Of a stretch of 64,000 bases of DNA, positions 2,152-46,136 are shown in pieces. The notes beneath the pieces were generated by a model. It saw nothing but the letters and a program-made list of their open reading frames with translations. It made no database searches and was not told where the DNA came from. Origin of the DNA: a virus; IMG/VR virus record IMGVR_UViG_3300021960_009431. One strand, 5' to 3'. The translations under genes were made by a program, and so were the position numbers. Every line of letters begins with the position of its first letter. The first letter of the stretch is position 1.

Positions 2152-5100
2152 ATGGCACGAGCTAACACTGCCTCTCTAGATACGAATTTTAATGTAGATC
2201 CGTATTACGACGACTTTGATGAAACAAAAAACTTTCACAGAGTTTTATATCGTCCCGGGTTTGCTGTTCAAGCTAGAGAGCTTACACAAATGCAAACTAT
2301 TTTGCAAAATCAAATCGATAGATTTGGTGAGCATATATTTAGAGAAGGAAGTGTAGTATCCGGTTTAGAAGTTAATTATGATGATGAATATAACTTTGTT
2401 AAAGTAAGAGACGGTGATAATACAGGTAACACTTTAGTATTATCTGATGGTGTTGGAAAATATATTACTGGTGCTACTTCTAATGTTACAGCTATTGTTA
2501 TTGATACTATTGATGGTTCAGAAGCAGATAGTCCTAATACAAAAACTCTTTATGTAAAATATATTGATACTGGTACTCAAGGTACATCAGGTAATACTAC
2601 TTTTTCTTCTGGTGAAAGATTAATTGCTAATAGTGGTAGTTTTACCGCTAATGTTATTAGTTCAGGTGTAACTACTGGTTCAGGTAGTCATATTAAAATT
2701 GAAGAAGGTATTATCTTTGCAAAAGATCATTTCATAAAAATACCATCAGCTAATCTTTTATTAGGTAGATACTCTTCTAATGTAAGCTATAAAATAGGAT
2801 TTAATATAGCAGAAGAAATAGTAACTTCAGCAGGAGATACTTCTCTTTTAGATCCATCTCAAGGTTCATTTAACTATACAGCACCTGGTGCAAATAGATT
2901 AAAATTAAATCCATCAGTAGCAAAATATGAATTAACTGCTAATACTGGCGATGATTTTGTAGAAATTTACAGAGTACAAGAAGCGCACACTGCTCTTAAT
3001 AATGAAAAACCAAGATATTCAGAAATAAGAGATTATTTTGCACAAAGAACTCATGACATTAACGGTGATTTTATTGTAAAAGGTCTTGGTGTACGTTTAA
3101 GAGAGCATTTAGAGCAAGCTAATAATCAAGGTGTTTATTCTGTTGCAAATGGCGGAGATAGTACAAAATTAGTTGTAGATATTGATCCAGGTAAAGCTTA
3201 CGTTGGTGGTTATGATATCGAAAACTTAATTACAGCTCATGTAAATACAACTAAATCAACTGATTTTAATTCTATTGAAGCTTCAACTGTATCTGCTAAC
3301 TATGGTAATTATGTGGTAGTAAAAGAAGTTTCCGGTGCATGGGATGTTAACACTCATGACATAGTTAACTTACATAAAGGTTTTGCACGGTCAGTTTCTA
3401 ACACACTTTACTCTACATCTGCACCAGCTGGTGATTTATTAGGTACTGCTCGAGTAAGAGCTTTAGAATATGTTTCTGGTACTAAAGGCGATTCTGAAGC
3501 AAAATATAATATGTATTTGTATGACGTCAAAACTACAGCTAATACATTTAGTGAAGTAAGATCAATAAGAATAGATAATTCAGCAGGAAGTCAAGCTAAT
3601 GGTATTGCTGATGTTATAGTAAGCTCTGCTAATACTGCTTCGTTTAACGAAAACACTTTTAATAGAGCAGTTTTTAGATTGCCTGCAAAAGCAGTTAAAA
3701 GACTAAGAGATACTACAGGTAATATTGATACTAATTTTCAATTCTTAAAAAGCTTTGATGTTACTATTGCGGCGGATGGTACATTCAGTGTTGCTACTGG
3801 AGCAGCAGATGAGACATATCCATTTTCAGCAGGTGCATTAAATGCAACACAGAAAAACGCAGGTTTTTATGTAGTACTTAATGCTAATACAGCTAGTACA
3901 AGCACTGTAGATACGGGTTCTATGGCTAATATGGCCAATACTGTAACCGGTCTTACCTCAGCGGCAACTAAATTTAATGTTGGTGATAGAATTCAACTAG
4001 CTGATTATGCTAATAATTTTACTGTATCATCTGTTTCTTCTACATCGTTAACTACTTTAGAACCTGCTCTTGCAGCAATTTCTTCTAAAGGTGTTGTCAA
4101 AAAGTTTAATAAAGGTCAAGTTATTGACATGTCGGGTGTTGGAGGAGATAATGGTTCAAGAACAGTGACGATTGCTTCAGCAACTTCTGCTACTTTTGAT
4201 ATACAAGAAACTTTGACAGGTACTGCTACTGCTACTGTTATAACGGAATTGACTAAAGTAGATGGTAGAGAGATCGCTAAAAACTTTAACTCTAACCGTT
4301 TTGTAGAAGTTACAGTTAATGCGTCTGATGGAACAACCAATACAACCGGTCCTTGGAATCTCGGTCTTTCTGATATTCACGAAATAACTGAAGTAAGAAA
4401 ACAAACAGGTAATACAGCATTTACTGCAGTAACTCAAGGTACAGATGTGACTGCTAACTTTTTACTCGATAACGGGCAAAAAGATAATATGTATGATCAT
4501 GGTAAATTAAAATTAAAACCAGGTTCGTCAGCATCAGCTGGTGATGTTTATCTAGTAAAATTAAATTACTTTACTCATGATACATCGCAAGGTGTTGGAT
4601 ACTTTTCTGTAGATTCTTATCCTATTGACGATGTATTAGTTTCTAATACAACTGCAATTACTACACAAGAAATACCTTTATTTGTATCACCAGCAAGCGG
4701 CAATCTTCTTGATCTAAGAGACTGTATTGATATTAGACCAAGAATTACAGATACAGCTGCAGATGCAACATCTGTAGGTGCAGCAACTACAAACCCTGCT
4801 ACAAGTACTACTATTGTCTCACCTTCAGGTGGTTTGAGATTTATGGCTCCTAATGAAAATCTAACTGCAGATTTAGATTATTATCTAGGAAGAAATGATA
4901 AAATTTCACTATCACCGTCAGGAGATATTAGAGTTACTAAAGGTAAATCATCAATTAACCCAGTAACACCAGAAGAGCCAAGCGGACATCTACCTCTTGC
5001 AACTGTATATGTGCAACCATTTCCATCTCTTGCACCTGATACAGCTAAAAACTTTAATAGATATGATCTTTCTGCATATATTGAACCGATTAAATCTAGA

Positions 5101-8100
5101 CGATTTACAATGCAAGATATTGGTAACATAAAAACTCGTTTAGATAAAGTAGAATATTATACTAGATTATCTTTAGCAGAGCAAGAAGCTAAAAATTTAA
5201 ATTTTGCTGACGGTAATGGTATAGATAGATTTAAAAATGGAATGATAGTTGATACCTTCACTGGTCATAATATTGGTGATGTTGGTAATCCAGATTATGC
5301 TGCTGCTATTGATAAATTAAAAGGTGAATTGAGACCTCAGTTTAAATTAAATAGTATACAACTTGATTCTCAAACAGCTAATAGTTCTAATTTAGTATTA
5401 GGACCAAGTGATGCTACTTTAACAGTTAGTGGTACAGCTACTTTTACAGTTGGTGAAACTATTACCGCCGGCGCTGCATCAGGTAAGCTAGTCTATCAGG
5501 TAGGTCGTAAACTTTACTTAGAACAAGTATCTGGTACATTTTCTACATCTACAACAGCATCTGGTGGTTCAAGTTCTTCGAGTGGAGCAATATCAGCAGT
5601 TTCAACCTCAGGTAATGGTTTACTAGCTACACTACCTTATACTCATTTATCAGTTATTGATCAACCTTCTGCTACAACAACACGAAATGCCGCTGGTTTA
5701 TTCTGGTCATTTATTGGTAATATTTCACTTTCTCCAGATACTGATATGTGGGTTGATACTACAACAGCTCCAGATATTCAGCTTAATTTTGAGTCTAATT
5801 TAGATAACTGGCCTGGATTAGAAAACTCCTGGCAAACAGAATGGAATAACTGGCAAACTACAGGTACAGGTGTAAGTTCAAGTTCTTTTAATTCTACAAG
5901 AGAGACAAGAGTACGTAGTGCAACTGGGTTGCCAGCTGGAGGAAATAGAGTAGCTGATGTAGATACTATTTTTCGAGAAACTACAACCAACCAAGTGCGT
6001 AGTGTAACTACAAGTCAATCTCGTACAGGTATATCAACTGGTATTGAAATTCAATCTCAAACAGAACGCACTGGTCCTAGAGTAATTGATACTAATTTAA
6101 TTCCGTTTATGAGATCTAGAATTGTTCAAGTAACAGGTAGAGGTTTTAAACCTAATACTAAATTATATTCTTTCTTTGATGGTACCGATGTTTCAGCATT
6201 TGTTACACCAACAACATCTGCATTTGCAAATACTGCAGTTGAAGGAGGAAGCTTATTCTCTAATAGTGAAGGTGATGTTTATGCAGAGTTTAGAATACCT
6301 GCAAGTGGCAATTTAAGATTTAAAGTTGGTGATAGATTATTTCGTTTAACTGATAATGTTACAAATGCTTCTGGTGCCGGTTTAACTACAACATCTGGTG
6401 AAGCTTTATATTCAGCTAGAGGTTTAAGTCAGACTGTACAAGATACAGTTATATCAACTAGATTGCCTCAGCTAGCAACTAGAACTGTTTCTGAATCAAG
6501 AAGCTTTACTTCAAGCGCTGTAGTTTCAAGTCAATTAACTGCTAGAGAACCTGTAAGAAACGAAGTTACTTGGAGACAAGTTCCTCGACCTCGACCACGT
6601 GACCCAATTGCGCAAACATTTATTATAGATAATAGTGCAAGAGGTGTTTCATCAAGTGGAGCATTTCTATCTAAAATAGATCTATTCTTTGGTTCAAAAG
6701 ATAGTTCCCGTCCAGTTTTTATTGAAATAAGAGAAGTAGATCCTACATCATCATTTATTACTAATAAAATTGTTCCATTTTCTGAAGTTATAATAGAAGC
6801 AGCTGATATTAATACAAGCTCAGACGGCTCATCACCAACACCAGTTAATTTTAAAACACCTATTCACTTGAAAGATCAAACTGAATATGCTGTAGTAATT
6901 AAACCAGGTGCAGATAATCCTGATACTACTCTTTTTGTATCACGTTTAGGTGGTAATGATTTAATTACAGGGGAAAGAATAGTTAAACAGCCATATGTTG
7001 GTACAATGTATGCTTCTTCTAATAACAAAGCTTGGAATGCTATTCAAGAAGAAGATCTTAAATTTAAACTATATATTGCTCAATTTACTACAGGCACAAC
7101 TGCAGCTACTGTATTTAAAAACAAAGATATTGATTTTATGAAGATCAATAATGGTGCTAATACATTTAATACGATTGGAGAGAGTATTCATGGCGAGACA
7201 ACTCTTACATTAAGTAATGGTATAACAGTAAATTCAAATATGGTTCTTGTTGGTAATACATCTGGAGCAAATTGTGTGGTTACTTCTAATAACTCAGGAA
7301 CAACTTCAATAAGAGTGAAAGATGTATCATTAACTAAATTTACTACAGGTGAGCATATTAATGTAAAAATTAATAATGTAAAACAAGCAGATTTTGGTAC
7401 TATTAGCGGACAGTCAACCGCTACAGGTAAGATAGCTTACTATGATAGAGTAAACGAATCTGGTAATACTATTATTCATGTTGATAATGTTTCTGGAACA
7501 TTTACTAATGGACATCAAATAAAAGGTCAAACAAATAGTAAAACTGCTACTATTGAAAGTATAGATGTTCTTGAAGTAGATACTTTACATCTTAATTCAA
7601 GTTATGTATCATTTGATAATACGACAGTATCACCTTTTATAAAATTAAATACTTCAAAAACAGCTAGAGATAGTGCTTTTAGAAGAATTGAAGATAATGA
7701 AAATGAGGAATTTACTACACCTAGATTTGTACTTTCTAAATCAATAGAAAATGCAAATATTAGTGGAGAAAAATCTGCAGAATTTAAATATGAATTTAGT
7801 ACTACTGATCCTAATTTATCTCCAATGTTTGATATTGAAAGAGTTCAAGCTATTGTAGTAAATAATAAAATTAACAACGATTCTACAGGTGAAACCTCAG
7901 CCTCAGGTGGTAATGCTGAAGCTAGATATATGACAAGAATACTAGAATTAGCAGATGGCCAAGATGCTGAAGATATTAAAGTAAAACTTAATGCATATAA
8001 ACCTTCAGGTACTGATGTAAAAGTTTATTATAAAATACTTCATAAGGATGACAGTGACTTTTTTGATGATCGAAGCTGGGTAGCTATGGGTCAAGATACT

Positions 8101-32930: not shown

Positions 32931-33978
32931 TACGCACTTTGGTGCTCGTAATGATAATACAGCGTTTGCAGACTATTTCGGAAAATTTTATACAGATATT
33001 TTCTTTCCATATCTAAAAGAGAATAATATTGATACTATTATTCATCTAGGCGATATCGTAGATAGACGCAAATATATTAATTACCAAACCCAAGCTCATA
33101 TGCAAAAAGCTTTCATTGATCCTGTCATTGAAAACAATTACACTATGCATGTGATTATTGGTAATCATGATACGTATTATAAAAATACTAATGAAATAAA
33201 CTCAATGCAGCAGTTATATGGTACTACTGGGTATGAGAAAATTAAATGGTATGATAATAATCCAGCAGTAATAAATTTTGACGGTTGTGATATTATGCTT
33301 CTACCTTGGTTGTGTAGTAATAATATTGAGCCTTTTATGAAAGAAGTAGATAAAACTACAGCTCAAGTATTATTCGGTCATCTTGAGCTTAAAGGTTTTG
33401 AGATGTATAGAGGTGCAATTAATGATCACGGTTTTGATAGTTCTCTTTTCAATAAGTTTGATATTGTATGCTCTGGACATTTTCACCATAAAAGTACAGT
33501 CGGCAATATTAACTATCTCGGCTCTCCTTACGAAATTACTTGGTCGGACTTTGATGATCCTCGCGGCTTTCATATTTTTGATACTGATAGTAGGGCAATA
33601 GAGTTCGTTAAAAATCCATATACAATGTTTAATAAAATATTCTATGATGATGAAAATCAGACTATGGAATATGTTGTTAATCAAAACTATGAGCGTTTAG
33701 CAAATAGTTATGTTAAAGTGATTATTAAGAATAAAACTAATCCTTATTGGTTTGACATGTTTATGGAGAAGCTTGAAAAAGTAAATCCTATTCATATTCA
33801 AGTTGTAGAAGATCATTTGAATCTCGATCTAGAATCAGATGATGATATTGTAAGTGAAGCAGAAGATACTATGACTATTCTGCACAAGTATATTGATAAT
33901 CTAGAAGTTAATGTAAATAAGACACAACTAGAGACAACAATAAAAGATTTATATTCTGAAGCACTATCGGTGAGTTAA
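32908..33978 (+). CDS. gp47: Recombination endonuclease subunit gp47 (Mre11-like)
   Basis: DTHFG, HLGD, GNHD and SGHFH phosphoesterase motifs. Confidence 0.96.
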   Translation: MKIALVTDTHFGARNDNTAFADYFGKFYTDIFFPYLKENNIDTIIHLGDIVDRRKYINYQTQAHMQKAFIDPVIENNYTMHVIIGNHDTYYKNTNEINSMQQLYGTTGYEKIKWYDNNPAVINFDGCDIMLLPWLCSNNIEPFMKEVDKTTAQVLFGHLELKGFEMYRGAINDHGFDSSLFNKFDIVCSGHFHHKSTVGNINYLGSPYEITWSDFDDPRGFHIFDTDSRAIEFVKNPYTMFNKIFYDDENQTMEYVVNQNYERLANSYVKVIIKNKTNPYWFDMFMEKLEKVNPIHIQVVEDHLNLDLESDDDIVSEAEDTMTILHKYIDNLEVNVNKTQLETTIKDLYSEALSVS

Positions 33979-35693
33979 TGATCTATTTTAAATATCTTCG
34001 TTGGAAGAATTTTCTTTCAACTGGAAATGTATTTACTGAATTAAAATTAGATAAAGCAAAATCTACTCTTGTAGTAGGTGAAAATGGTGCTGGTAAAAGT
34101 ACTATGCTCGACGCTTTGTCCTTTGCTCTGTATGGTAAACCGTTTCGTAAAATTAATAAACCTCAACTTATGAATACTATTAACCAAAAAGGTTTAGAAG
34201 TGCAAGTTGAGTTTCGTGTTGGTAAAAAAGAATATATGATCGTACGAGGTGTCAAACCTAATAAGTTTGAGATTTATGAGAACGATAAAATTATTAATCA
34301 AGATGCAGCAGCTAGAGATTATCAAGAAGTCTTAGAAAAAAATATTCTTAAACTTAATCATAAATCCTTTAGTCAGATTGTTGTACTAGGTAGTAGTACG
34401 TTTGTTCCTTTTATGCAACTTCCTTCAATGCATCGTAGAGAAGTTATTGAAGACTTACTTGATATTCAAATTTTCTCTACGATGAACACTCTTTTAAAAG
34501 ATAAAGTAAATAATAATAAATCTGAAATTCTTGATAACGACTATAATATTAATCTTGCTGAAGAAAAGATTAAAATGCAGCACCAGTATATTAATGAGTT
34601 AAAGCAAAACACTGAGAAGCGCGTTAATGAAGCTAAGGTAAAAGTAGTCAAAGCAGAAAAAGAAAAACAAGAATATAATACGTTAATAGATACTCTTCAA
34701 GATCAAGTTAATATATTACAAGAAAGTATTTCTGATTTTGAAAGCTTAACTAAAAAGAAATCTAAGGTAGAGCAGCTAGAATATAAACTTCAAGAAAAAA
34801 TTAAAAAGCTTGAACATGATATTGAGTTCTATCAAGATCATGATAACTGTCCTGTGTGTAAGCAAGACATCGAAGAAGACTTTAAAGATCAGACGATTGA
34901 AGAAAAAGAAACTTCATTAAATGAGACTGTAAATGGTTTTAATCAGTTAAGAGAAGAATGGCAATCGATTAATAATCGTATACAAGAAATCTCTGAAGTA
35001 CAGTTAGATATTTCGTCTAAGCAGAATGAAATTAGCAGTAACAATTCTCACATCAATGCTTTAAATAAACTTATTGACAGTATTAATGAAGATATTACCA
35101 GTATTGATGATAGCGATAAATCAGATAAGTCAGATAAAAAGAAATTAGAGACATTAGAAAAAGCTTTAGTTAAACTACAATCTTATAAAGAAGAAATAAT
35201 AAATGAGCGATCTGTTTTAGATATTGCATCGATGATTCTTAAAGATTCTGGTATTAAAACTCGTATTATTAAACAATATATTCCAGTAATGAATAAACTT
35301 ATTAATAAGTATCTTGCTGCAATGGATTTCTTTGTTGACTTTCAGCTTGATGAAAACTTTAATGAAACTATAAAGAGTAGGTTCCGAGATGTATTTTCCT
35401 ATGCTTCCTTCTCAGAAGGTGAAAAGATGCGTATTGATCTTGCGTTATTGTTTACTTGGAGAGCTGTATCAAAGTTACGTAACTCAGTAAGTACTAATCT
35501 TCTTATTATGGATGAAGTATTTGACTCATCTTTAGATAATACTGGTACAGAAGAGTTTTTAAAGATACTAAATGACTTGACTTCTGATACAAATGTCTTT
35601 ATAATAAGTCATAAAGGTGATCAACTCTATGATAAATTTCATAGTGTTATTCGTTTTGAGAAGCATAAAAACTTTAGTAGGGTTGCAGCATGA
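33978..35693 (+). CDS. gp46: Recombination endonuclease subunit gp46 (Rad50-like)
   Basis: GENGAGKST; CPVC zinc hook; FSEGEKMR; MDEVFD. Confidence 0.97.
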   Translation: MIYFKYLRWKNFLSTGNVFTELKLDKAKSTLVVGENGAGKSTMLDALSFALYGKPFRKINKPQLMNTINQKGLEVQVEFRVGKKEYMIVRGVKPNKFEIYENDKIINQDAAARDYQEVLEKNILKLNHKSFSQIVVLGSSTFVPFMQLPSMHRREVIEDLLDIQIFSTMNTLLKDKVNNNKSEILDNDYNINLAEEKIKMQHQYINELKQNTEKRVNEAKVKVVKAEKEKQEYNTLIDTLQDQVNILQESISDFESLTKKKSKVEQLEYKLQEKIKKLEHDIEFYQDHDNCPVCKQDIEEDFKDQTIEEKETSLNETVNGFNQLREEWQSINNRIQEISEVQLDISSKQNEISSNNSHINALNKLIDSINEDITSIDDSDKSDKSDKKKLETLEKALVKLQSYKEEIINERSVLDIASMILKDSGIKTRIIKQYIPVMNKLINKYLAAMDFFVDFQLDENFNETIKSRFRDVFSYASFSEGEKMRIDLALLFTWRAVSKLRNSVSTNLLIMDEVFDSSLDNTGTEEFLKILNDLTSDTNVFIISHKGDQLYDKFHSVIRFEKHKNFSRVAA

Positions 35694-36226
35694 TAATGAA
35701 TTTAGTGAAATCAAATGATCCAATATTAAAACAGAAATGTGAAATGTTTGATTTTGATAATCCACCGATGGATCCATTAAAATTAGCGCTTGACTTAAGA
35801 GAGAGTATGATATATCATAAGGGTATTGGTTTATCTGCTTGTCAGGTTGGTATACCATATAGAGTATTTGTTGCTGGTGATCCAGGTGATATTGATAATA
35901 TTAAAGTATTTTTTAATCCGAGAGTAGTTGATGCATCGGATCAAAAAGTTTTGATAGAGGAAGGATGCTTATCTTTCCCTGGTTTGTTTATGAAGGTAAA
36001 ACGTCCAGCCACAGTACGACTTCGATTTGCTGATCCTAGAGGTACAATAGCTACAGAGACATATGAAGGTGTACCAGCACGAGCTATTCTACATGAATAT
36101 GATCATATGGATGGTATATTGTTTCATAATCGTGCTAATTCATATCATAGAGATCAAGCAAAAAAACAGAAAAAAAAGTTAGATAGGCTTCGCGAAGCTA
36201 ATAAAAAGAAGCTAAGTAAAGTATAA
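35690..36226 (+). CDS. def: Peptide deformylase
   Basis: GIGLSACQVG, EEGCLS, HEYDHMDG. Confidence 0.93.
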   Translation: MIMNLVKSNDPILKQKCEMFDFDNPPMDPLKLALDLRESMIYHKGIGLSACQVGIPYRVFVAGDPGDIDNIKVFFNPRVVDASDQKVLIEEGCLSFPGLFMKVKRPATVRLRFADPRGTIATETYEGVPARAILHEYDHMDGILFHNRANSYHRDQAKKQKKKLDRLREANKKKLSKV

Positions 36227-36227
36227 T

Positions 36228-36264
36228 CAGTAGTGCCCTTCCACTGCTTAACTAAAACTAGGAG
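36228..36264 (+). ncRNA. Candidate SD-sequestering pseudoknot (preQ1-I-like) in queE leader
   Basis: Stem AGTAGTG/CACTGCT, loop CCCTTC complementary to SD GGAG, A-rich linker TTAACTAAAACTAG. Confidence 0.45.
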
Positions 36265-36270
36265 TTCTAA

Positions 36271-37212
36271 ATGTCCCCGAAAGAATATACGTATTCTGAG
36301 ATCTTTCATTCTATTCAAGGTGAAGGTCATTATACCGGTGTTCCAACTGCATGGATAAGATTTTTCTTATGTAATTTACAGTGCGATGGATTCGGTCAAG
36401 ATCATCCAACTAAACCAGAAACCTGGGATCTACCATATAAAGATTTTGATTCTCACTCTGTAACAAGAGTAGAGGATTTACCGGTATGGTCAAAGGGTTG
36501 TGATTCTTCTTATACCTGGTCTAAAAAGTTTAGACATTTAATGGGTAAAGCTACAGGAGCTGAACTAGCTCAAAAGCTAGTCAATATTATGAAGAATGAG
36601 CATAACCCTGAAGGTTGGTTCTTACACCCGTTATCTAAACAGCATAACCATTTATGTATTACAGGTGGTGAACCTCTAATGCGTCATGCTCAATTGGCGT
36701 TTATAGACATATATAAAACTTTAGAAGAAATGCCAGGTGGTCCATTACCTGATACTCATTTTTACTCTCCTAATAATTTACCTGCAAGTATAACTTGGGA
36801 AACTAATGGTACTCAACCATTAACAGAAGATTTCAAAAATCTTGTAGATAGTCCTTTATTTAGACCTGAAGCTTTCTTTTCCGTATCTCCTAAACTCTGG
36901 ACTGTAGCAGGAGAACAACGAAAGAAAGCAATTAAACCTGAAACTGTAAAAGAATATTATGATATTTCTAAAAACGGTCAGCTTAAATTTGTAGTAGGTC
37001 AAACTAAAGAAGAGTGGGAAGAGTTAGACGAAGTAGTTAATTTGTTTAGAGACGCAGGAGTTAAATATCCTGTATGGATCATGCCTGTAGGAGCAAGATC
37101 AGAAGAGCAAGAAGCCACTGCTGGTGATGTAGCTAAAATGGCATTCGAAAGAGGTTATAATGTCTCTGGAAGAATGCATGTTTATTTATTTGGAAACGCA
37201 ATAGGAACATAA
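36271..37212 (+). CDS. queE: 7-carboxy-7-deazaguanine synthase (radical SAM)
   Basis: EIFHSIQGEG; CNLQC...GCDS; ITGGEPL; ETNGT; SVSPKL. Confidence 0.92.
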   Translation: MSPKEYTYSEIFHSIQGEGHYTGVPTAWIRFFLCNLQCDGFGQDHPTKPETWDLPYKDFDSHSVTRVEDLPVWSKGCDSSYTWSKKFRHLMGKATGAELAQKLVNIMKNEHNPEGWFLHPLSKQHNHLCITGGEPLMRHAQLAFIDIYKTLEEMPGGPLPDTHFYSPNNLPASITWETNGTQPLTEDFKNLVDSPLFRPEAFFSVSPKLWTVAGEQRKKAIKPETVKEYYDISKNGQLKFVVGQTKEEWEELDEVVNLFRDAGVKYPVWIMPVGARSEEQEATAGDVAKMAFERGYNVSGRMHVYLFGNAIGT

Positions 37213-37213
37213 C

Positions 37214-37657
37214 ATGGCATATTATAGTACAAAAACTTACGGACATAATATCGGGCTTTCTGCTGTCTTTAGACAACCTAAAGCTCATTCTCATTGTAAA
37301 TTTTTACATGGGTATAGCTTAGCATTTAAGTTTACTTTTGGTGCTAGTAATTTAGACGAAAGAAACTGGGTAGTAGATTTTGGAGGTTTAAAAACTCTAA
37401 AAAAATGGCTAGAAGACAGCTTTGATCATAAACTAGTATTAGATAGAGATGATCCAATGATGTATAAGTTTGCTGAATTAGAAAATGCTGGTCTAGCTGA
37501 GATTACTGTTTTAGATGGTGTGGGTGTAGAAAGGTTTGCTGAGCATGCATGGAAGTTTGCAGACGATCTTGTAACAGAAGCTTCCGATGGTAGATGTTGG
37601 TGTGAGTCAGTAGAATGTTCAGAACATGGCGCTAATAGTGGAATATATAGGAGATAA
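37214..37657 (+). CDS. queD: 6-carboxy-5,6,7,8-tetrahydropterin synthase
   Basis: HC..LHGY; WVVDFG; FDH; C-terminal E..NS. Confidence 0.9.
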   Translation: MAYYSTKTYGHNIGLSAVFRQPKAHSHCKFLHGYSLAFKFTFGASNLDERNWVVDFGGLKTLKKWLEDSFDHKLVLDRDDPMMYKFAELENAGLAEITVLDGVGVERFAEHAWKFADDLVTEASDGRCWCESVECSEHGANSGIYRR

Positions 37658-37659
37658 AA

Positions 37660-38343
37660 ATGAAGCACAGCGAAGTTATTAAACAACGTATTGAAGAAGC
37701 TGGTATTAGATATTGGGCTGGTGATAACATTAGTGATGTATTACAAGATGGTGATAAAGAATTAATTATTGAAGAAGCTACAAAAGCTTTCGAAAATGTG
37801 CTTGACTCTTTACTAATAGATCGTTATAATGATCCTAATAGTATGGATACAGGTAGACGGTTAGCTAAGATGTATGTAAATGAAGTCATGAGCGGAAGAT
37901 ATAATATAATGCCTAAAGTATCAGCTTTTCCTAATGAAGGAGAAGATCGATATACAGGTATGCTAGTTATACGTTCTGAAGTAAAAAGTATGTGTTCTCA
38001 CCATCATCAACCAGTTACAGGGGTTGCTTATATTGGTGTTATACCTGGTCAAAAAGTAATAGGACTTTCTAAGTATACTCGTATTGCTCAATGGTGTGCA
38101 CGTAGAGGTACATTGCAGGAAGAACTATGTAATGACATTGCTCGTGAGATCCGTAAAGCTACTGACAGTGAAGATGTAGCTGTTTATGTACAAGCTACTC
38201 ACGGGTGCTGTGAGAATAGAGGTATTATGGCTCATAGTTCTCTAACTCAAACTACTGTATTACATGGAGAATTTAATAACGGAGATGTTAAAAAAGAGTT
38301 TTTTGATAATATAAAATTACAGCAGGAGTTTGCTCCAAGATGA
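37660..38343 (+). CDS. folE: GTP cyclohydrolase I
   Basis: SMCSHH; IGLSK..R; LQEEL; HGCCENRG. Confidence 0.95.
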   Translation: MKHSEVIKQRIEEAGIRYWAGDNISDVLQDGDKELIIEEATKAFENVLDSLLIDRYNDPNSMDTGRRLAKMYVNEVMSGRYNIMPKVSAFPNEGEDRYTGMLVIRSEVKSMCSHHHQPVTGVAYIGVIPGQKVIGLSKYTRIAQWCARRGTLQEELCNDIAREIRKATDSEDVAVYVQATHGCCENRGIMAHSSLTQTTVLHGEFNNGDVKKEFFDNIKLQQEFAPR

Positions 38344-38501
38344 ATCATATGAATGTATCTTTTGTAAAAAGTGGTATACGAATAGGAGCTTGTATTTTAG
38401 GAATAACACTTCAAAGTATAACAGCGTTATGTTTTTTCTTGCTATTTGCCGAAATATTAGGTATAATAGAAGAAGTTGTAGATAAACGTGAGGAGAAATA
38501 A
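38340..38501 (+). CDS. 53-aa membrane protein (not in ORF track)
   Basis: MNHMNVSFVKSGIRIGACILG...FFLLFAEILGIIEEVVDKREEK; ATGA overlap with folE and TAATG overlap with the next gene. Confidence 0.7.
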   Translation: MNHMNVSFVKSGIRIGACILGITLQSITALCFFLLFAEILGIIEEVVDKREEK

Positions 38502-39283
38502 TGAAAATAGCGCATGAAGCTCCATTAAGTATCTTTGATCAAGTACAGGAGTTAACTGATTATGATTATGCTCTTGTACATCTATTTGAAGAGAATGATG
38601 ATTATTTTAATAAATTTATAGAAGCAAGAGATAAAGGTAGAGAGATCATTCTTGATAATTCTATCTTTGAACTCGGTACAGCATGGGATAGTGATAGATT
38701 TGCTTACTGGGTAGAGAAACTAAAACCTGATTGGTATATTGTACCTGATGTATTAGATAATAAAGACGCTACAATTGATAGCTTTGATGCGTTCATAGAA
38801 AAGTATCCTAACTTACCTGGAAAACGTATTGCTGTCGCTCAAGGTACTACTTATGAAGAGTTAGTTGATTGCTACGAATATCTTGCATATCATAATAAAG
38901 TAGATAAGATTGGTTTATCATTTAACCATCCGTTTTTTCAAGAATTAAATTTGCATAACAAATACTTTAATATGATGTTTGGAAGACAGATGACTCTAAC
39001 ATCAATGCTAGAAGATAAAATTATTAATAAAGATAAACCGCATCATCTATTAGGATGTGGTCTACCTCAGGAGTTTAGAGACTATGTAGACTATAAATGG
39101 ATTGATTCTATTGATACATCTAATCCTGTTATGCACGGTATTAAAAATGTACGTTACTTAGAGCATGGTTTAGAAGATAAAGAATCAGTAAAAATGTTTA
39201 CTATAATGGACGATAATGTTCTTGCATCTTGGGACGATATAGCTTATAATATAGAGAAGTTTAGAGGTTTCTGTAGTGGATAG
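38501..39283 (+). CDS. dpdA: TGT/DpdA-family 7-deazaguanine transglycosylase (DpdA3-like)
   Basis: TIM-barrel TGT-like motifs ILDNS.FE, IVPDVL, VAQG, HHLLG, SIDTS; embedded in the que cluster. Confidence 0.75.
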   Translation: MKIAHEAPLSIFDQVQELTDYDYALVHLFEENDDYFNKFIEARDKGREIILDNSIFELGTAWDSDRFAYWVEKLKPDWYIVPDVLDNKDATIDSFDAFIEKYPNLPGKRIAVAQGTTYEELVDCYEYLAYHNKVDKIGLSFNHPFFQELNLHNKYFNMMFGRQMTLTSMLEDKIINKDKPHHLLGCGLPQEFRDYVDYKWIDSIDTSNPVMHGIKNVRYLEHGLEDKESVKMFTIMDDNVLASWDDIAYNIEKFRGFCSG

Positions 39284-39806
39284 ATGGATTGCTTTATTTT
39301 CTCAAACTGGTTCTGAAATAGTAGATATAGCAAATCAGCTGGGAGTTTGGCCAGATCGTATTTTTACTGATAATAAAAATATAGAAGATATAAACGTTAA
39401 GCTTAAAAATAAAATAGTGGTAATGTCTCATAATGGTATAGAAGAGACACTACAATATACAAGTGATATGACAGGTAATACTTTAGTTACTCTTCATGGT
39501 TATCTACGTATATTAAGTCCTAAAACATGTAATGTAGGTCTATCAATTTATAACGGTCATCCAGCTTATATCTCTAAACATCCAGAACTTAAAGGAAAAG
39601 ATCCTCAAGAGATGATTTGGAGTGATAGAGATAATTATGATTTTATTGGCTCTACGGTTCATAGAGTGATTGCTGACGTAGATGCTGGAGCTATTGAAGA
39701 AGAAAGTATAAGGAAAAATACTTGCAATTCTAAAGAAGAGCTGTATAATACATTAAGAAAAACATCTTTAGATGCTTGGATTAATTTTTTAAAGGATAAA
39801 TTATGA
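39276..39806 (+). CDS. dpdN: PurN-like formyltransferase (DpdN-like preQ1 formyltransferase)
   Basis: LFSQTGS, LHGYLRIL, IYNGHPA, KGKDP, GSTVHRV..VDAG; adjacent to the dpdA-like gene. Confidence 0.75.
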   Translation: MDRWIALFSQTGSEIVDIANQLGVWPDRIFTDNKNIEDINVKLKNKIVVMSHNGIEETLQYTSDMTGNTLVTLHGYLRILSPKTCNVGLSIYNGHPAYISKHPELKGKDPQEMIWSDRDNYDFIGSTVHRVIADVDAGAIEEESIRKNTCNSKEELYNTLRKTSLDAWINFLKDKL

Positions 39807-40138
39807 GTAAAAAAGATAAAAGCTTTTTTGAAACGTTGACTGTGTCTGTAGATAATACTGATGTTGAACCTACAATTACTTTAGGTGAAATTGATGAAGA
39901 TGGTGAGCCTCGTCCTAATCATTATAGTCAAGATCCTAATTCTATAGAATGTATTGAAGTTATTAAGCAGTTGTGTAAGGAACATCAGAACGATCCTTTT
40001 ACTGACTATAATAGATATCAAGCGTTCAAATATCTTTGGCGTATGGGTAAGAAAGATGATGTATTGTTTGATTTAAATAAAGCTATTACATTTTTGGAGT
40101 TTGCAAGGAAAGCATTAGAGGATGAACGTAATGGATGA
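39803..40138 (+). CDS. DUF3310 (T7 gp1.7-like nucleotide kinase family) protein
   Basis: PNHY...IECIEVI...KYLWRMGKK...DLNKA. Confidence 0.8.
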   Translation: MSKKDKSFFETLTVSVDNTDVEPTITLGEIDEDGEPRPNHYSQDPNSIECIEVIKQLCKEHQNDPFTDYNRYQAFKYLWRMGKKDDVLFDLNKAITFLEFARKALEDERNG

Positions 40139-41063
40139 AATTGAAAAAATTGCTAGTAAGGTATTAGGTAAAACGTCTGACGGATCTACTATGATGCGTT
40201 ATGAAACACCAGATGATATAGATGCTTCTTTACTCGTAGGCGTACCTAGACATCTCAATCGCACTGGTTACGGTATTAGTAATGACGGTTCAGAGTTATT
40301 TCATGGTATTGATGCTTGGAACGGTTATGAGTTTAGTTGTTTATTAGATAATGGATTTCCTGTTTCAGGTCTTCTTAAATGGAACTACCCTTCAGATTCA
40401 GAATGTATTGTTGAATCTAAATCTGCTAAGTTATATCTCAACTCTTTTAATATGGTTAAGATGGGGAAAACAGTTGAAGAAGCTATAGCTAATGTAGAAC
40501 AGAAAATTGATGAAGATATGGCACCTGTACTTGGTATTAGTGATGAATGGGACTTAAATGTATGTCTACATATGAATGAGGATCATACATCACGTCCTAT
40601 TTCAGGAACATTTATTCCACTTGAAGAAATTGTAGATGTAGCATCTATTGAATTTGATCATTATAATGAAGATCCAGAAATTATTAAATTAGAAGTAAAT
40701 GAAGATTATAGAGATATTAAATATCAATCTAAATCTCTTCGCTCTAATTGTCGAGTAACTAACCAGCCTGACTGGGGTGATATCTTTATTCATATAAAAG
40801 GTGATCGTATTCCTACACCTGAATCTTTATTGCAATATATTGTAAGTATGCGTAAAGAAAATCATTTCCATGAGGAAATATGTGAGTGTGTTTATAAACG
40901 TTTACATGATCTTTGTGGTCCAGAAGAATTAGTGGTTGCATGTCTATATACACGTCGTGGTGGTATTGATATTAATCCAGTAAGAGCAAGTAGTCCTCAA
41001 TTACTTACTCAACATCCGATCACCGACGCATTTAATATGTGTGATAAAACTATGCGTCAGTAA
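40131..41063 (+). CDS. queF: NADPH-dependent preQ0 reductase, bimodular type
   Basis: ESKSAKLYLNSFN; SNCRVTNQPDWG; FHEEICE; YTRRGGIDINP. Confidence 0.93.
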   Translation: MDEIEKIASKVLGKTSDGSTMMRYETPDDIDASLLVGVPRHLNRTGYGISNDGSELFHGIDAWNGYEFSCLLDNGFPVSGLLKWNYPSDSECIVESKSAKLYLNSFNMVKMGKTVEEAIANVEQKIDEDMAPVLGISDEWDLNVCLHMNEDHTSRPISGTFIPLEEIVDVASIEFDHYNEDPEIIKLEVNEDYRDIKYQSKSLRSNCRVTNQPDWGDIFIHIKGDRIPTPESLLQYIVSMRKENHFHEEICECVYKRLHDLCGPEELVVACLYTRRGGIDINPVRASSPQLLTQHPITDAFNMCDKTMRQ

Positions 41064-41115
41064 GTGGTTCATGAAAGCTAACCACTTTAAAAAACATACC
41101 GCTTTCATATTGGAG
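41062..41115 (+). ncRNA. preQ1-I riboswitch-like H-type pseudoknot (variant) in queC leader
   Basis: AAGTGG-TTCATG-AAAGCTAA-CCACTT-TAAAAAA-CATA, then GCTTTCAT complementary to loop ATGAAAGC, just before SD GGAG. Confidence 0.65.
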
Positions 41116-41121
41116 AACTAA

Positions 41122-41937
41122 ATGAAAAATATCGTTGTATCATTATCTGGAGGAATGGACTCCTCTACTCTACTGTTGCGCGCTATCAAAGAGGTAGGTG
41201 CAAGTAATGTAACAGCTTTGTCATTTGATTATGGACAGAAGCACGTTTGTGAATTAGAACGTGCTAAAGAAATAGTAAACTATCTTGCAGTACATGGGCA
41301 TACAATCAGGTATCAAGTTATTAAACTTGATGGTATTACTGAGTTGTTATCTTCAGCCCTTGTATCTGGAGGTGCAGATGTGCCTGAAGGTCATTATGCA
41401 GAAGATAATATGAAGCAGACGGTTGTACCTAATCGTAATAAAATCTTTGCTTCATTAGTTCAAGCTGTTGCTTTATCTGTAGTAAAAAATACTGAACAAG
41501 AAACAGCTATTGCATTAGGTATTCATGCCGGTGATCATGCAATTTACCCTGATTGTCGTCAAGAGTTTCGTGATGCAGATGATGAAGCATTTCGAATTGG
41601 TAACTGGGATGCTGATAAAGTAACTTATTTTACTCCTTATCTTGAAGGTGATAAGTTCGATATTCTAAAAGACGGTGAAGTACTTTGCGAGCAGCTAGGT
41701 TTAGACTTTGATGAAGTTTATTCTCGTACAAACACCTCATACAAACCTTTACAGATTGATGGAGTGTGGTTCTCTGATTATAAGAGTTCTTCTTCTGTCG
41801 AACGTCTGGAAGCGTTTATTAAACTAGGACGTCCTGATCCTGTCGCATATGCTGACGAAACAGGTCCTGTTCCTTATGAGATAGCTAGAGCACATGCTCA
41901 GCTAGTACTCAAGGAATATCAAAGTAACGCAGCATGA
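41122..41937 (+). CDS. queC: 7-cyano-7-deazaguanine synthase
   Basis: SLSGGMDS PP-loop; YGQKH; VPNRN; YPDCR. Confidence 0.93.
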   Translation: MKNIVVSLSGGMDSSTLLLRAIKEVGASNVTALSFDYGQKHVCELERAKEIVNYLAVHGHTIRYQVIKLDGITELLSSALVSGGADVPEGHYAEDNMKQTVVPNRNKIFASLVQAVALSVVKNTEQETAIALGIHAGDHAIYPDCRQEFRDADDEAFRIGNWDADKVTYFTPYLEGDKFDILKDGEVLCEQLGLDFDEVYSRTNTSYKPLQIDGVWFSDYKSSSSVERLEAFIKLGRPDPVAYADETGPVPYEIARAHAQLVLKEYQSNAA

Positions 41938-41948
41938 AAGGATAATAA

Positions 41949-42557
41949 ATGCTGAAACAAATGTTTAATCTCGAAGCAGTAGATCGATCTCTATTGTGGA
42001 AACTGGTACTTACACATCTAGTAATCATTGCTGCTTCAAACTATATTGTTCAATTTAGTGGTATGATTTTTGGTTACCACTTTACATGGGCAATGTTTAT
42101 CTTCCCACTTGTAGTGATTGCTACTGACTTAACTATCCGATTAACTAATAAGTATCAAGCTCGAATGGTAGTAGCTATTGCTTTTATTCCAGCTATTTTT
42201 ATTAGCTCTTATATTGCTACTCCAATGATTGGATTAGCTAGTGCTCTTGCATATCTAGTAGGTCAGTTATTTGATGTATCTGTCTTTCAGAAAATTAGAG
42301 AAGCATTTACAGAACGTTGGTGGGTAGCACCTGCAGTATCAACGTTTGTTGCTAATATTGTTGATACCTATCTATTCTTCTGGGCAGCATTCGCATATGG
42401 CAATGATGAGTTTATGGCAGCTAATTGGTTAGAAATTGCTACTGTAGATGTAATCTTTAAAATTATCGTATCATTTGTAATGTTCTTACCTATATACGGT
42501 GTACTACTTCGATATCTACGTACACGTATGGAAGTAGGTACAGGTGGAACTTATTAA
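41949..42557 (+). CDS. yhhQ: Queuosine-precursor (preQ0/preQ1) transporter, YhhQ/Vut_1 family
   Basis: ASNY, FP....TD, AY.VGQ.FDV.VF, S.FVANIVDT.LFF; about six TM helices. Confidence 0.88.
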   Translation: MLKQMFNLEAVDRSLLWKLVLTHLVIIAASNYIVQFSGMIFGYHFTWAMFIFPLVVIATDLTIRLTNKYQARMVVAIAFIPAIFISSYIATPMIGLASALAYLVGQLFDVSVFQKIREAFTERWWVAPAVSTFVANIVDTYLFFWAAFAYGNDEFMAANWLEIATVDVIFKIIVSFVMFLPIYGVLLRYLRTRMEVGTGGTY

Positions 42558-42572
42558 AAATAAGGTTATATA

Positions 42573-43079
42573 ATGACAATGATTAATATCGGAGGCAGTA
42601 ATGCTGCCTCCTCTTTAACTAACGTTCAAGAAAAAGACGTTCAACCTAATGCAGTTGATTTGCGGGTTGATAAAATTCTAAAGATTCTCGGTAATGATTT
42701 TACTATTGACGAGGATCAAAAAGTTCATAGAGGATCAGAAGAACTAGAGCCTGATAAAGATGGTTACTTTCATCTTGAACCAGGTGCTTATGAAGTATTA
42801 ATGGAAAATATTATTACTATTGGTCATGGAGAAGCTGGTTGGGTTATTCCTCGTTCTACTTTAAATCGTAATGGTGTATTTCTAACTTCTGGATTATATG
42901 ATTCAGGTTATAAAGGTGTTATGGCTAGTGTAATGCATGTTACTACAGGTACAATGCATATTGCTAAAGGTACACGTATCGGTCAATATCTTAACTTTCA
43001 AGCAGAGACATTATCTATGTATGACGGTGATTATGGTATTGGTAAAGAGTTTGACAAAAAAAATTATGAGGGGAAATGA
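42573..43079 (+). CDS. Trimeric dUTPase / dCTP-deaminase-fold protein
   Basis: QPNAVDLR; PRSTLNRNG; YDSGYKG; RIGQ. Confidence 0.85.
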   Translation: MTMINIGGSNAASSLTNVQEKDVQPNAVDLRVDKILKILGNDFTIDEDQKVHRGSEELEPDKDGYFHLEPGAYEVLMENIITIGHGEAGWVIPRSTLNRNGVFLTSGLYDSGYKGVMASVMHVTTGTMHIAKGTRIGQYLNFQAETLSMYDGDYGIGKEFDKKNYEGK

Positions 43080-43930
43080 TGCCGCAAGTTGAAGTTAAAA
43101 TCTCTACTGAAGAGTTACGTAAACGTAAAATTATGGTTGCTACACCAATGTATGGTGGCCAGTGTGCTGGTATATATACAAAATCTTGTACTGATTTAGT
43201 TAAAGTGTGTGCTAATCATGGAGTGCAAGTCGATTTCTTTTACCTGTTTAATGAGTCATTAATTACTAGAGCTCGCAACTATCTTGTAGATGAGTTTATG
43301 AGGTCTGAACATACACACCTTATGTTTATTGATAGCGATATTGGTTTTGATCCAATGGATGTTCTTGCATTAGCTGCTTTAGCGGATGAGAGTGAAGATA
43401 GAGAGATTGTCTGCGGCCCATATCCTAAGAAAGCTATTTCATGGGAAAAAATTAAACGTGCTGTTGATAAAGGCTTTGCTGATGAAAATCCTAATATATT
43501 AGAGAAGTATGTTGGTGATTATGTTTTTAATCCAGCTGGTGAATCAGGTAATCAAATTAGATTAGACCAACCTGTAGAAGTGCTTGAAGGCGGTACAGGA
43601 TTTATGTGTGTAACTAAAAGTGCATTTGAAAAATATGAGAAAGCATATCCTGAATTTCATTATAAACCTGATCATGTACGTACAAAAAACTTTGATGGAT
43701 CTCGTGAGATTATGGCATACTTTGATTGTGTAATTGATCCTGAAACAAAACGTTATCTATCAGAAGATTATATGTTTTGTCAGTGGTCGCGTAAAGCAGG
43801 TGTTAAGGTATGGATGTGCCCATGGATGAAATTGACTCATATGGGCTCATATATGTTTGGTGGCAGTTTAGTTGATCTTGCTCAGATTGGTGCATCTGCT
43901 ACTGTGGGAAATGATTTTAAAGTTAAATAA
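43076..43930 (+). CDS. GT-A fold glycosyltransferase-like protein
   Basis: VATPMYGG; ESLITRARN; LMFIDSDI (DxD); GTGFM; LSEDY.FC. Confidence 0.75.
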   Translation: MMPQVEVKISTEELRKRKIMVATPMYGGQCAGIYTKSCTDLVKVCANHGVQVDFFYLFNESLITRARNYLVDEFMRSEHTHLMFIDSDIGFDPMDVLALAALADESEDREIVCGPYPKKAISWEKIKRAVDKGFADENPNILEKYVGDYVFNPAGESGNQIRLDQPVEVLEGGTGFMCVTKSAFEKYEKAYPEFHYKPDHVRTKNFDGSREIMAYFDCVIDPETKRYLSEDYMFCQWSRKAGVKVWMCPWMKLTHMGSYMFGGSLVDLAQIGASATVGNDFKVK

Positions 43931-43947
43931 ATTGGATATATTATATT

Positions 43948-44616
43948 ATGAAACTAACCGCAAAAACCTTTCAGGTACTAAAGAACTTTTCTTCTATTAA
44001 TCAGTCTATTTACTTTACTCAAGGTAATAAGATTCGTACTATTTCACCTATGAAGACTATTATGGCTGAAGCAGAAGTACAAGAAATGTTTCCTCGTGAC
44101 TTTGGTATCTATGATCTTAATCAGTTTCTTGGAGTGCTTAGTCTCTTTGAAGAACCTGATCTAGATTTTGATACATCATACTTAACTATCAATAGTGAAG
44201 ATAAAGCACAGAGTGATTACTTCTATGCTGATAAATCTATGATTGTAGTTCCTCCAGAAAAGCAACTGGAACTACCAGATACATCTATTAGCTTTACTAT
44301 TAGCGATAGTGTACTTAAACGAGTACAACAAGCTGCTAATGTACTTCAACTTCCTGAAGTAGTGGTAAAAGGTGATGGTGAAGAAATTTCGTTCCGTGCA
44401 ATGAATACAAAAAACTCCTCCTCTAACTCTTTTCATTATAAAGTTGGTGTAACTGATAAAGTCTTCTCTATGGTGTTTAAAGTAGAAAATCTTAAGTTGC
44501 TTCTAGGCTCATATGATGTTACAATTAGTAGTAAAGGTATTTCTCAGTTTAAATCTACTGACGGTAACCTAAATTATACTATTGTAAATGAAGCTTCGTC
44601 ATCGTATGAGGGATAA
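43948..44616 (+). CDS. gp45: Sliding clamp gp45
   Basis: VLKNFSSINQSI; FGIYDLNQFL; FKVENLKL. Confidence 0.95.
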   Translation: MKLTAKTFQVLKNFSSINQSIYFTQGNKIRTISPMKTIMAEAEVQEMFPRDFGIYDLNQFLGVLSLFEEPDLDFDTSYLTINSEDKAQSDYFYADKSMIVVPPEKQLELPDTSISFTISDSVLKRVQQAANVLQLPEVVVKGDGEEISFRAMNTKNSSSNSFHYKVGVTDKVFSMVFKVENLKLLLGSYDVTISSKGISQFKSTDGNLNYTIVNEASSSYEG

Positions 44617-44617
44617 A

Positions 44618-45187
44618 ATGTATGTTGATGAATACATATATGTAAAACGTAAATTCTTAACAGAAGACGAATGTGATAAACTATTTAAAACATCTTCTAT
44701 TTACAAAGAAAGAGATTTAAGCTATTTTGGTGAAAAAGAAAACAAACCAAAAAACTATCCTAATAGTGGATTGTTAAATGAAGAAACACTACTTAATCAT
44801 AATGAAACATTTAATGATAAGATAAAAAAATTAGCACAAGAGTATTATAATAGATATACAAACAATTTACTATCATTAACTGATTTATCAGATGGTCTAA
44901 TTCATTACTATGGTAAAGGAACGTCTTTTGATGATCATATAGATGACATACATGGATTATTTGATGGTGAAAAAAAAGGTGTGCCTCAATTATCTACAAT
45001 CACATCTCTCTCAAGTGATTATGAAGGAGGTGAAATAGTATTTAATTATCCAGGCTCTACAAATGAAAATAATTTTAAATTAAATTGCGGTGATGTTATT
45101 ATTTTTCCAAGCTGTTTTATATATAAACATTACATAAAAACTATTACTGATGGTTATAGATGTACAATTGTAAAATGGTTATGGTAA
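44618..45187 (+). CDS. 2OG-Fe(II) oxygenase
   Basis: HID; YEGGE; GDVIIFPS..Y.H.I..ITDGYR. Confidence 0.85.
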   Translation: MYVDEYIYVKRKFLTEDECDKLFKTSSIYKERDLSYFGEKENKPKNYPNSGLLNEETLLNHNETFNDKIKKLAQEYYNRYTNNLLSLTDLSDGLIHYYGKGTSFDDHIDDIHGLFDGEKKGVPQLSTITSLSSDYEGGEIVFNYPGSTNENNFKLNCGDVIIFPSCFIYKHYIKTITDGYRCTIVKWLW

Positions 45188-45200
45188 GTGAGGTTATATT

Positions 45201-46136
45201 ATGGAAGAATTTTTATGGGTGGAAAAATATCGACCTAAGTCGATAAATGACTGTATACTGCCCGACAGTCTTAAACTAACGTTTCAAGAGTTTATAAATC
45301 AAGACAATATTCCTAATTTACTTTTAACTGGTGGCCCTGGTGTAGGTAAAACTACAGTAGCTAAAGCTATGTTAAATGAAATAAATGCAGATTATATTGT
45401 TATTAATGGTAGTATGAATGGCAACATTGATACTTTGCGTAACGAAATAAAAGACTTTGCATCTACTATGTCTTTTACTAATACTCGTAAGTATGTTATT
45501 CTTGACGAAGCTGATTATCTGAACCCTCAATCTACTCAACCTGCTCTTCGAAACTTTATGGAAGAGTTTAGTAAAAACTGTGGTTTTATTCTTACTTGTA
45601 ATTTTAAAAATAGAATTATTGAACCGCTGCATTCCCGTTGTAGTGTAGTAGAGTTTAATGTTCCTAAACAAGATCGACCTAAAGTAGCGTCTCAATTCTT
45701 TAAACGTGTATGTAATATTCTTAAAGAAGAAAACGTTCAATATGATTTGAGTGTTGTTGCTAAAATGGTTGAAAGTTATTTTCCTGACTTTCGTAGAGTG
45801 TTAAACGAATTACAACGTTATGGTGCAGCAGGGAAAATAGATACAGGTATACTTGCAAGCAATAGTGATGCATCTATAGAAGAACTATTAAGTTATTTAC
45901 AAAAAAAATCTTTTAGTGAAATGCGTAAATGGGTAGCACAAAATAGTGATGTAGACACATCATCAATGTTGCGTAAAATTTACGATAATGCAAATGAAAA
46001 AATGAAACCACATTCAGTAGCTCAATTAGTATTAATTATAGCTGACTATCAGTATAAAGCTGCATTTGTTGCTGATCAAGAAATTAATATGGTAGCCTGT
46101 ATGACAGAGATAATGGCTAATTGTGAGTTTGAATAA
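45201..46136 (+). CDS. gp44: Clamp loader large subunit gp44
   Basis: LWVEKYRP; GPGVGKTT; ILDEAD; PL.SRC. Confidence 0.97.
   Translation: MEEFLWVEKYRPKSINDCILPDSLKLTFQEFINQDNIPNLLLTGGPGVGKTTVAKAMLNEINADYIVINGSMNGNIDTLRNEIKDFASTMSFTNTRKYVILDEADYLNPQSTQPALRNFMEEFSKNCGFILTCNFKNRIIEPLHSRCSVVEFNVPKQDRPKVASQFFKRVCNILKEENVQYDLSVVAKMVESYFPDFRRVLNELQRYGAAGKIDTGILASNSDASIEELLSYLQKKSFSEMRKWVAQNSDVDTSSMLRKIYDNANEKMKPHSVAQLVLIIADYQYKAAFVADQEINMVACMTEIMANCEFE

Follow-up and report, generated by a model that had tools for sequence, protein, structure and literature searches.

In the DNA of Flavobacterium phage immuto, formyl-preQ1 (fdPreQ1) stands in place of all deoxyguanosine (dG) (PMC10516641). The DpdA3 type of DNA guanine transglycosylase was defined by three groups, those of immuto, Campylobacter CP220, and Cellulophaga phiST (PMC10516641). 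Replacement of a whole base in DNA demands a metabolic flux far beyond that of tRNA queuosine, and its regulation in phages is unpublished; our literature search found no paper linking DpdA systems, riboswitches, and phage. Here, we describe a 7-deazaguanine cassette at positions 36271-42557 of IMG/VR record IMGVR_UViG_3300021960_009431, which comes from an uncultured T4-like phage. The whole stretch of DNA that was analyzed (64,000 nucleotides [nt]) is called the window below.

Judged by sequence, immuto is the closest characterized system to this cassette. Both encode FolE, QueD, QueE, QueC, QueF, DpdA3, and DpdN, with identities of 37-70%. In both, dpdA3 and dpdN lie side by side or almost so, with a kinase-like gene and then queF after them, and both have unusual types of QueD (with HGY) and of QueC (without the C-terminal Cys cluster). 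Because the nearest relatives of the window's DpdA3, DpdN, QueF, QueD, and FolE are found in immuto and the immuto DNA is fully substituted with fdPreQ1, homology indicates that the cassette is most likely a formyl-preQ1 system. We consider it probable that the window encodes a self-contained DpdA3/DpdN cassette for DNA hypermodification with fdPreQ1, organized in two coupled blocks that are each led by a pseudoknot. The enzyme set itself is, by its homologies, of the published DpdA3/DpdN kind; what is new is the T4-like frame with YhhQ.

The transglycosylase and the formyltransferase

Open reading frames (ORFs) were assigned to families by profile scans with Pfam, NCBIfam, and PHROGs. The plus-strand ORF at 38501..39283 encodes a predicted DpdA3-type DNA guanine transglycosylase of 260 amino acids (aa), which matched phrog_19058 at 9.8e-54 and had zero matches in Pfam. 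By tblastn, the protein shared 53.6% identity with the immuto_2-6A protein named 'DNA guanine transglycosylase', and 41% and 26% with proteins from the Campylobacter CP220 and Cellulophaga phiST groups, respectively. A profile search against PDB sequences returned nothing meaningful, and fold comparison alone succeeded. An AlphaFold2 model built on an alignment of 33 relatives had a pLDDT of 91.4, and its top 50 PDB matches in Foldseek were all tRNA-guanine transglycosylases (TGT; E value ~1e-8, TM ~0.6). The model confirmed that the predicted protein folds as a TGT TIM barrel.

The next ORF on the plus strand (39276..39806) encodes a predicted DpdN-type, PurN-like formyltransferase (PF00551, 31.1 bits; cutoff, 26.1). 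Across its full length, it shares 41.5% identity with immuto DpdN (YP_010114479), which was its sole match among 50,697 phage records. A first-pass annotation of the window had tied DpdA3 and the PurN paralogue DpdN to fdPreQ1 in phage DNA. This is correct (PMC10516641), and the two window proteins proved to be nearest relatives of that pair. The comparisons that it had proposed, of the first ORF with DpdA and TGT and of the second with PurN and DpdN, bore out both assignments, with the immuto proteins as matches, a TGT fold in the model, and a PF00551 score above the cutoff.

A metagenome scan returned 490 relatives of the DpdA3-like protein. Among the best 80 of these, the gene directly 3' of dpdA3 is dpdN in nearly all cases, and the T4-like frame gp46-def...gp45-gp44 recurs at several loci. 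The 6.9-kb region itself had zero megablast matches in the 50,697 phage records.

Precursor synthesis and transport

The cassette begins with a gene for a QueE-like radical S-adenosylmethionine enzyme (7-carboxy-7-deazaguanine synthase; 36271..37212, plus strand, as are all genes of the cassette), which matched phrog_2076 at 1.8e-51. The NCBIfam QueE models matched only its N terminus, and its cysteines form the non-canonical motif C34-x3-C38-x38-C77. Because this QueE is ~51% identical to the QueE of relatives that are otherwise 80-90% identical, the sequences suggest a gene swap at queE. It is followed by genes for QueD (6-carboxytetrahydropterin synthase; 37214..37657; PF01242 [PTPS] at 1.3e-15), which is 37% identical to immuto QueD and shares with it CxxxHGY (HGY in place of HGH), and for FolE (GTP cyclohydrolase I; 37660..38343; PF01227 at 9.6e-39), which is 40% identical to immuto FolE.

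Further downstream, a two-domain QueF (preQ0 reductase; 40122..41063; TIGR03138 at 1.6e-65) contains the QueF_N and QueF Pfam domains and the ESKSAK motif and is 47% identical to its immuto counterpart. QueC (preQ0 synthase type; 41122..41937; PF06508 at 2.1e-36) is 70% identical to immuto QueC; it has kept the SGGMDS motif and lacks the C-terminal Cys cluster. The last gene, at 41949..42557, encodes a queuosine-precursor transporter of the YhhQ family. The YhhQ identity proposed in the first-pass annotation was upheld by TIGR00697 (110.5 bits; cutoff, 50.95). PRK11212 matched at 1.9e-57; on this stricter model, the score of 194 bits lies under the cutoff of 252.

Two small genes complete the set. 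A hydrophobic, putative membrane peptide of 53 aa (38340..38501) is kept in related modules. It had zero family matches in Pfam, NCBIfam, and PHROGs, and an Atlas look-up gave unnamed clusters only; the C-terminal end of the peptide family reads AE(I/F)LG(I/V)(I/V)EE. Between dpdN and queF lies a gene for a DUF3310 protein (39803..40138; PF11753 at 4.1e-9; phrog_1689, phrog_236). It aligns with the C-terminal portion of PHROGs that carry the name 'nucleotide kinase', and its position is kept in relatives.

In the pathway that we propose, FolE, QueD, QueE, and QueC would convert GTP to preQ0, QueF would convert preQ0 to preQ1, and YhhQ would import preQ0 or preQ1. DpdA3 would then swap DNA guanine for the deazaguanine base. 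Finally, DpdN would formylate the aminomethyl group; the virion DNA would then carry fdPreQ1, probably in place of most or all of its G, as is the case in immuto. Two points in the immuto work count against this proposal: the authors were unable to reconstitute DpdA3 in E. coli, and the function of DpdN is a prediction (PMC10516641).

The predicted status of DpdN would also fit a product other than fdPreQ1, such as unformylated dPreQ1 or a further derivative, or a cassette serving mainly to boost host tRNA queuosine, as would the identity of only 41.5% between the two DpdN proteins and the non-canonical motifs of QueE, QueD, and QueC. However, immuto has the same non-canonical types of QueD and QueC and is an fdPreQ1 maker. 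Moreover, the window's DpdN retains the PurN catalytic N-x-H and D (NGHPA at 93-97 and DAG at 136-138), tgt and queA are absent from the module, and the DpdA3-like protein, with its 260 aa and three cysteines, lacks a Cys/His zinc-cluster motif. We regard another product or a tRNA role as highly improbable.

A further question is when the base would enter the DNA. The DUF3310 gene has a counterpart in immuto, where a thymidylate-kinase-like gene lies between dpdN and queF, and many relatives carry a dUTPase-fold gene 3' of the module. Together with the complete replacement of G in immuto, this would suit a pre-replicative route, in which the enzymes act at the nucleotide level, the kinase-like and dUTPase-fold proteins shape the deoxynucleotide pool, and the polymerase incorporates the modified base. 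On the other hand, DNA is the substrate of every DpdA enzyme characterized so far, and the authors of the immuto study favor a post-replicative route (PMC10516641). In addition, the DUF3310 protein is no more than a putative kinase by PHROG annotation, and the closest relatives lack the dUTPase-fold gene. Entry before replication is thus improbable in our view, and exchange of the base in DNA by DpdA3 is the route that we retain.

Two gaps with conserved RNA structures

The gene order is queE, queD, folE, the 53-aa ORF, the DpdA3-type gene, the PurN-like gene, the DUF3310 gene, queF, queC, yhhQ, and a dCTP-deaminase (DCD)/dUTPase-fold gene. For queE to yhhQ, the ORF map and family scans agree with the gene list, the coordinates, and the tight packing between gp46/def and gp45 that the first-pass annotation had given. 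Adjacent genes overlap or are separated by at most 15 nt, except for the gaps 5' of queE (44 nt) and 5' of queC (58 nt). Both of these gaps contain RNA structures that are kept in related contigs. Structured leaders at these two positions had also been predicted, and we found there conserved, pathway-specific motifs, predicted to fold as pseudoknots, with features of preQ1-I riboswitches. In the proposed arrangement, queE to queF and queC-yhhQ would form two translationally coupled blocks, each opened by a small H-type pseudoknot. Both leaders are new variants, and neither is an Rfam family.

The queE leader

The queE-type leader (36229..36264, plus strand) starts with a 7-bp helix P1, in which 36229-36235 pair with 36242-36248. 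The loop CCCUUC spans 36236-36241, and an A-rich linker at 36249-36259 is followed by the tail AACUAGGAG and the start codon. As helix P2, we propose pairing of CCU (36237-36239) with AGG (36260-36262) within AGGAG, the Shine-Dalgarno (SD) sequence. A covariance model (CM) built from this motif, R1, scored the leader at 55.7 bits and found a single copy in the window.

The outer stem is supported by covariation: four outer pairs covary, with a score of 0.349 vs 0.074 for shuffles (0/500). The pair next to the core GUG/CAC was canonical in 60/60 sequences (AU 18, CG 16, GC 15, UA 10). Longer stems go with longer linkers (rho 0.71). This would be expected if the linker had to cross the stem for CCU-AGG pairing, and it lends indirect support to P2. 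Immediately 5' of the P1 3' strand, C36241 occupies the position of the specificity base and, like its counterpart in type I preQ1-I, follows a U (UC).

The motif, searched as core plus tail pattern, was present in 107 IMG/VR contigs. All of the non-redundant copies (96/96) head deazaguanine operons, the first gene being queE, queD, folE, a small peptide gene, or a flavodoxin-like gene. Where 5 kb of downstream sequence was available, dpdA followed in 34/38 and dpdN in 30/38 cases. Homologues of the 53-aa peptide are the first gene 3' of the leader, directly before queE, in 26 motif copies (e.g., L276). The leader is identical at 43/44 nt in relative L005, whose QueE is only 51% identical. In six relatives, a flavodoxin-like gene comes first after the leader (L160, from 2254; L166, from 2249; and four others); this fits since QueE needs a reductant. 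A scan of 185,579 prokaryote genomes gave 2 contigs with the motif, both short, phage-like def-motif-queE-queD-folE pieces in bins of metagenome-assembled genomes (L361, Rhodobacteraceae; L362, Melainabacteria). The assignment of L361 to Rhodobacteraceae may give a faint indication of the host or stem from a binning artifact. In a generic preQ1-I pattern scan of IMG/VR, most of the matches listed were due to chance, and the scan was not used.

Overall, the queE leader looks like a stripped-down preQ1-I-like riboswitch, a candidate for which ligand binding is predicted from the sequence. In our model, a 7-deazaguanine base, most likely preQ1 for example, would pair with the C just before the P1 3' strand and stabilize the knot. 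The stabilized knot would mask the SD sequence by pairing of the loop CCU with AGG and would switch off translation of queE to queF. With preQ1-like knots ahead of both of its gene blocks, the phage probably monitors and limits its own supply of the DNA base.

The leader had no Rfam match at E<10 other than chance hits. This negative result carries little weight because RF00522 of Rfam 15 at E<10 also missed a validated aptamer, that of type III in the E. coli yhhQ leader (L360, 9178-9215; 241 nt searched). Conversely, CM R1 failed to detect this E. coli aptamer, so the kinship of the queE leader with preQ1-I rests on layout and not on score.

The queC leader

The queC-type leader spans 41063..41108 on the plus strand. 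P1 (41063-41069 with 41080-41086) begins inside the queF stop codon, and P2 is formed by GAAAGC (41073-41078) and GCUUUC (41101-41106). The A-rich loop L3 covers 41087-41100, and the SD sequence GGAG lies at 41112-41115. The Rfam PreQ1 family RF00522 matched 41058-41103 with 21.4 bits (E value 0.011 on 111 nt), short of its gathering score of 39. P1, the following UUC, and the tail U-UAAAAAAC fit the RF00522 consensus.

In 24 variants of this leader, overall pairing was 99.4%, with one compensatory change per helix: P2 becomes GAAUGC/GCAUUC in four sequences, and P1 GUGG/CCAC becomes GAGG/CCUC in two. The canonical preQ1-I P2 (AUG with CAU) was considered and rejected, since the variants do not preserve it but do preserve GAAAGC/GCUUUC. 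The leader was present 5' of every QueC of the window's type that we found; a second QueC type, which has an N-terminal extension and abuts queF, is not preceded by it.

An alternative hairpin at 41103..41127 (plus strand), which joins UUUCAU to AUGAAA at the start of queC, is part of the minimum-free-energy fold (z -2.45). This hairpin and P2 are mutually exclusive, so knot formation could free the queC start codon. We therefore read the queC leader as a variant knot with preQ1-I features in which, judging from these pairings, knot formation may turn expression on rather than off. P2 would outcompete the start-codon hairpin, and translation of queC-yhhQ may open; both the ligand and the sign of this response are uncertain. 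An adenine opposite a guanine-like ligand could form a pair with two hydrogen bonds, and we speculate that the resulting lower affinity would suit a high-flux pathway.

Ligand-sensing or ligand-independent leaders

Taken together, the two leaders may be phage-specific, oppositely wired riboswitches derived from preQ1-I. The first would be a 36-nt mini-aptamer acting as an off-switch for the early pathway once free base builds up; the second would be an A-variant on-switch for queC-yhhQ that senses a deazaguanine at lower affinity or another intermediate. We advance this tentatively and hold it to be possible but doubtful.

Several observations count against regulation by ligand-sensing leaders in general. 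The queE leader lacks the UU that follows the P1 5' strand in types I and III, and its loop has 6 nt vs 9-12. CCU can pair with AGG in every copy; however, the search pattern fixed the core and both P2 strands (CCU, AGG), so that this complementarity gives no covariation evidence for P2 or the core. In the queC leader, each helix is supported by one compensatory event only, the specificity position (A41081) is A, not C, in 24/24 variants, and the SD sequence lies outside P2. Finally, some relatives carry mini-leaders before folE with G for the first loop C (GG CCUU CC or GG CCUC CC; L146, 1291-1322; L140, ~3955-3985; L134, 1191-1221; L135, 2311-2349). In these G-variants, a G-C pair can close the putative pocket. 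Such closure can be read either way from the sequences, as a built-in ligand mimic or as a ligand-free structure, and both fit equally. In favor of kinship with preQ1-I, a G-variant of a relative reached 25.9 bits on Rfam PreQ1.

The same G-variants, in which a tetraloop closes the hairpin and leaves no pocket free, would be expected if the leaders worked without any ligand: as a 5'-terminal stabilizing hairpin plus a knot that masks the SD sequence and holds translation at a fixed low rate, as a site for a phage RNA-binding protein, or as a device for queF-queC coupling. The missing specificity C in the queC leader points in the same direction. So does the start of its P1 in the queF stop codon, by which terminating ribosomes must melt P1. 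For the queE leader, the -10-like hexamer TATAAT directly 5' of it (36222..36227, plus strand) would put the hairpin at the 5' end of the transcript. In 45/120 motif copies, TAnAAT stands 5' of the motif core at a distance of exactly 5 nt; the hexamer in the window has no -35 partner, and scans for sigma-70 promoters and terminators were not above the shuffled background. Yet a general stability or translation element should precede other genes too, whereas the queE motif stands only before deazaguanine operons and occurs once in the window. The tail AACUAGGAG and the layout of P1 and A-rich linker match preQ1-I, and no conserved candidate RNA-binding protein accompanies the motif. We consider ligand-independent leaders rather unlikely.

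Neighboring genes

Upstream, the cassette is flanked by a gp46-like gene (33978-35693) and the deformylase gene def (35690-36226). On the other side, a GT-like ORF (43076-43930; phrog_1574, function unassigned), which is kept between the module and gp45, is followed by gp45 (43948-44616), a gene for a 2-oxoglutarate-Fe(II) oxygenase (44588-45187) between gp45 and gp44, and gp44 (45201-46136).

The DCD/dUTPase-fold gene (42573..43079, plus strand; PF22769 at 1.6e-15) adjoins the module, and its membership is doubtful. The first-pass annotation had placed it inside, and we rejected this: some relatives have such a gene after yhhQ or queC, and the closest (L003, L005) do not. Just 3' of yhhQ, in the first codons of this ORF, lies a strong 9-bp hairpin (42590-42611; GGAGGCAG UAAU GCUGCCUCC, then UCUUU) with a sub-threshold match to Rfam STnc290. 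It may be a terminator, or the start of the ORF may be miscalled.

Comparison with known systems

The cassette adds T4-like marine phages to the Flavobacterium phages as carriers of the DpdA3/DpdN system; this is relevant to restriction evasion and to sequencing artifacts at G. If the leaders bind a ligand, they would be metabolite-sensing RNAs devoted to DNA hypermodification. If they are also wired in opposite directions, the two would together make up a two-sensor circuit matched to the very high base flux that replacement of every G requires. The 36-nt queE leader would then be an unusually small aptamer, the smallest of its kind and useful for RNA engineering, and the leaders would provide a sequence tag for fdPreQ1-type phages in metagenomes.

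The reference for preQ1-I type III is the E. coli yhhQ leader (PDB 8FZA; PMC10622847). Like it, the queE leader would be a small H-type pseudoknot in which P2, as proposed here, joins CCU to the AGG in the SD sequence; both also have a short loop that is rich in pyrimidines and includes CCCU, an A-rich linker of variable length, and a location at queuosine-precursor genes. It differs from type III by a loop of 6 nt vs 9, by the lack of UU after the P1 5' strand, by UC instead of AC before the P1 3' strand, and by a GUG/CAC stem top in place of three G-C pairs. The queE leader is found in phages and type III in Pseudomonadota; RF00522 detects neither.

With type II (B. subtilis queC, T. tengcongensis; RF00522), the queE leader shares the tail AACUAGGA. 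The queC leader shares with type II the P1 AGUGG/CCACU followed by UUC, the tail U-UAAAAAAC, and the placement 5' of queC. In contrast to type II, it has AA instead of AC before the P1 3' strand and a 6-bp P2 between the loop GAAAGC and GCUUUC 15 nt downstream, with the SD sequence outside the knot.

The leader RNAs of the window also differ from those of immuto. In immuto, a canonical-looking preQ1-I aptamer (GGAG UCGUAGAAC CUCC AUAAAAAC) lies 5' of folE (L001, ~5255-5300), and a different knot-like leader precedes queC (L363, ~1440-1490). The window's QueE is of another subtype, with zero BLAST matches to immuto QueE. Whereas the module genes of immuto are interspersed with unrelated ORFs, the cassette of the window stands in a T4-like frame, forms two compact, coupled blocks between gp46/def and gp45, and adds YhhQ and the 53-aa membrane peptide.

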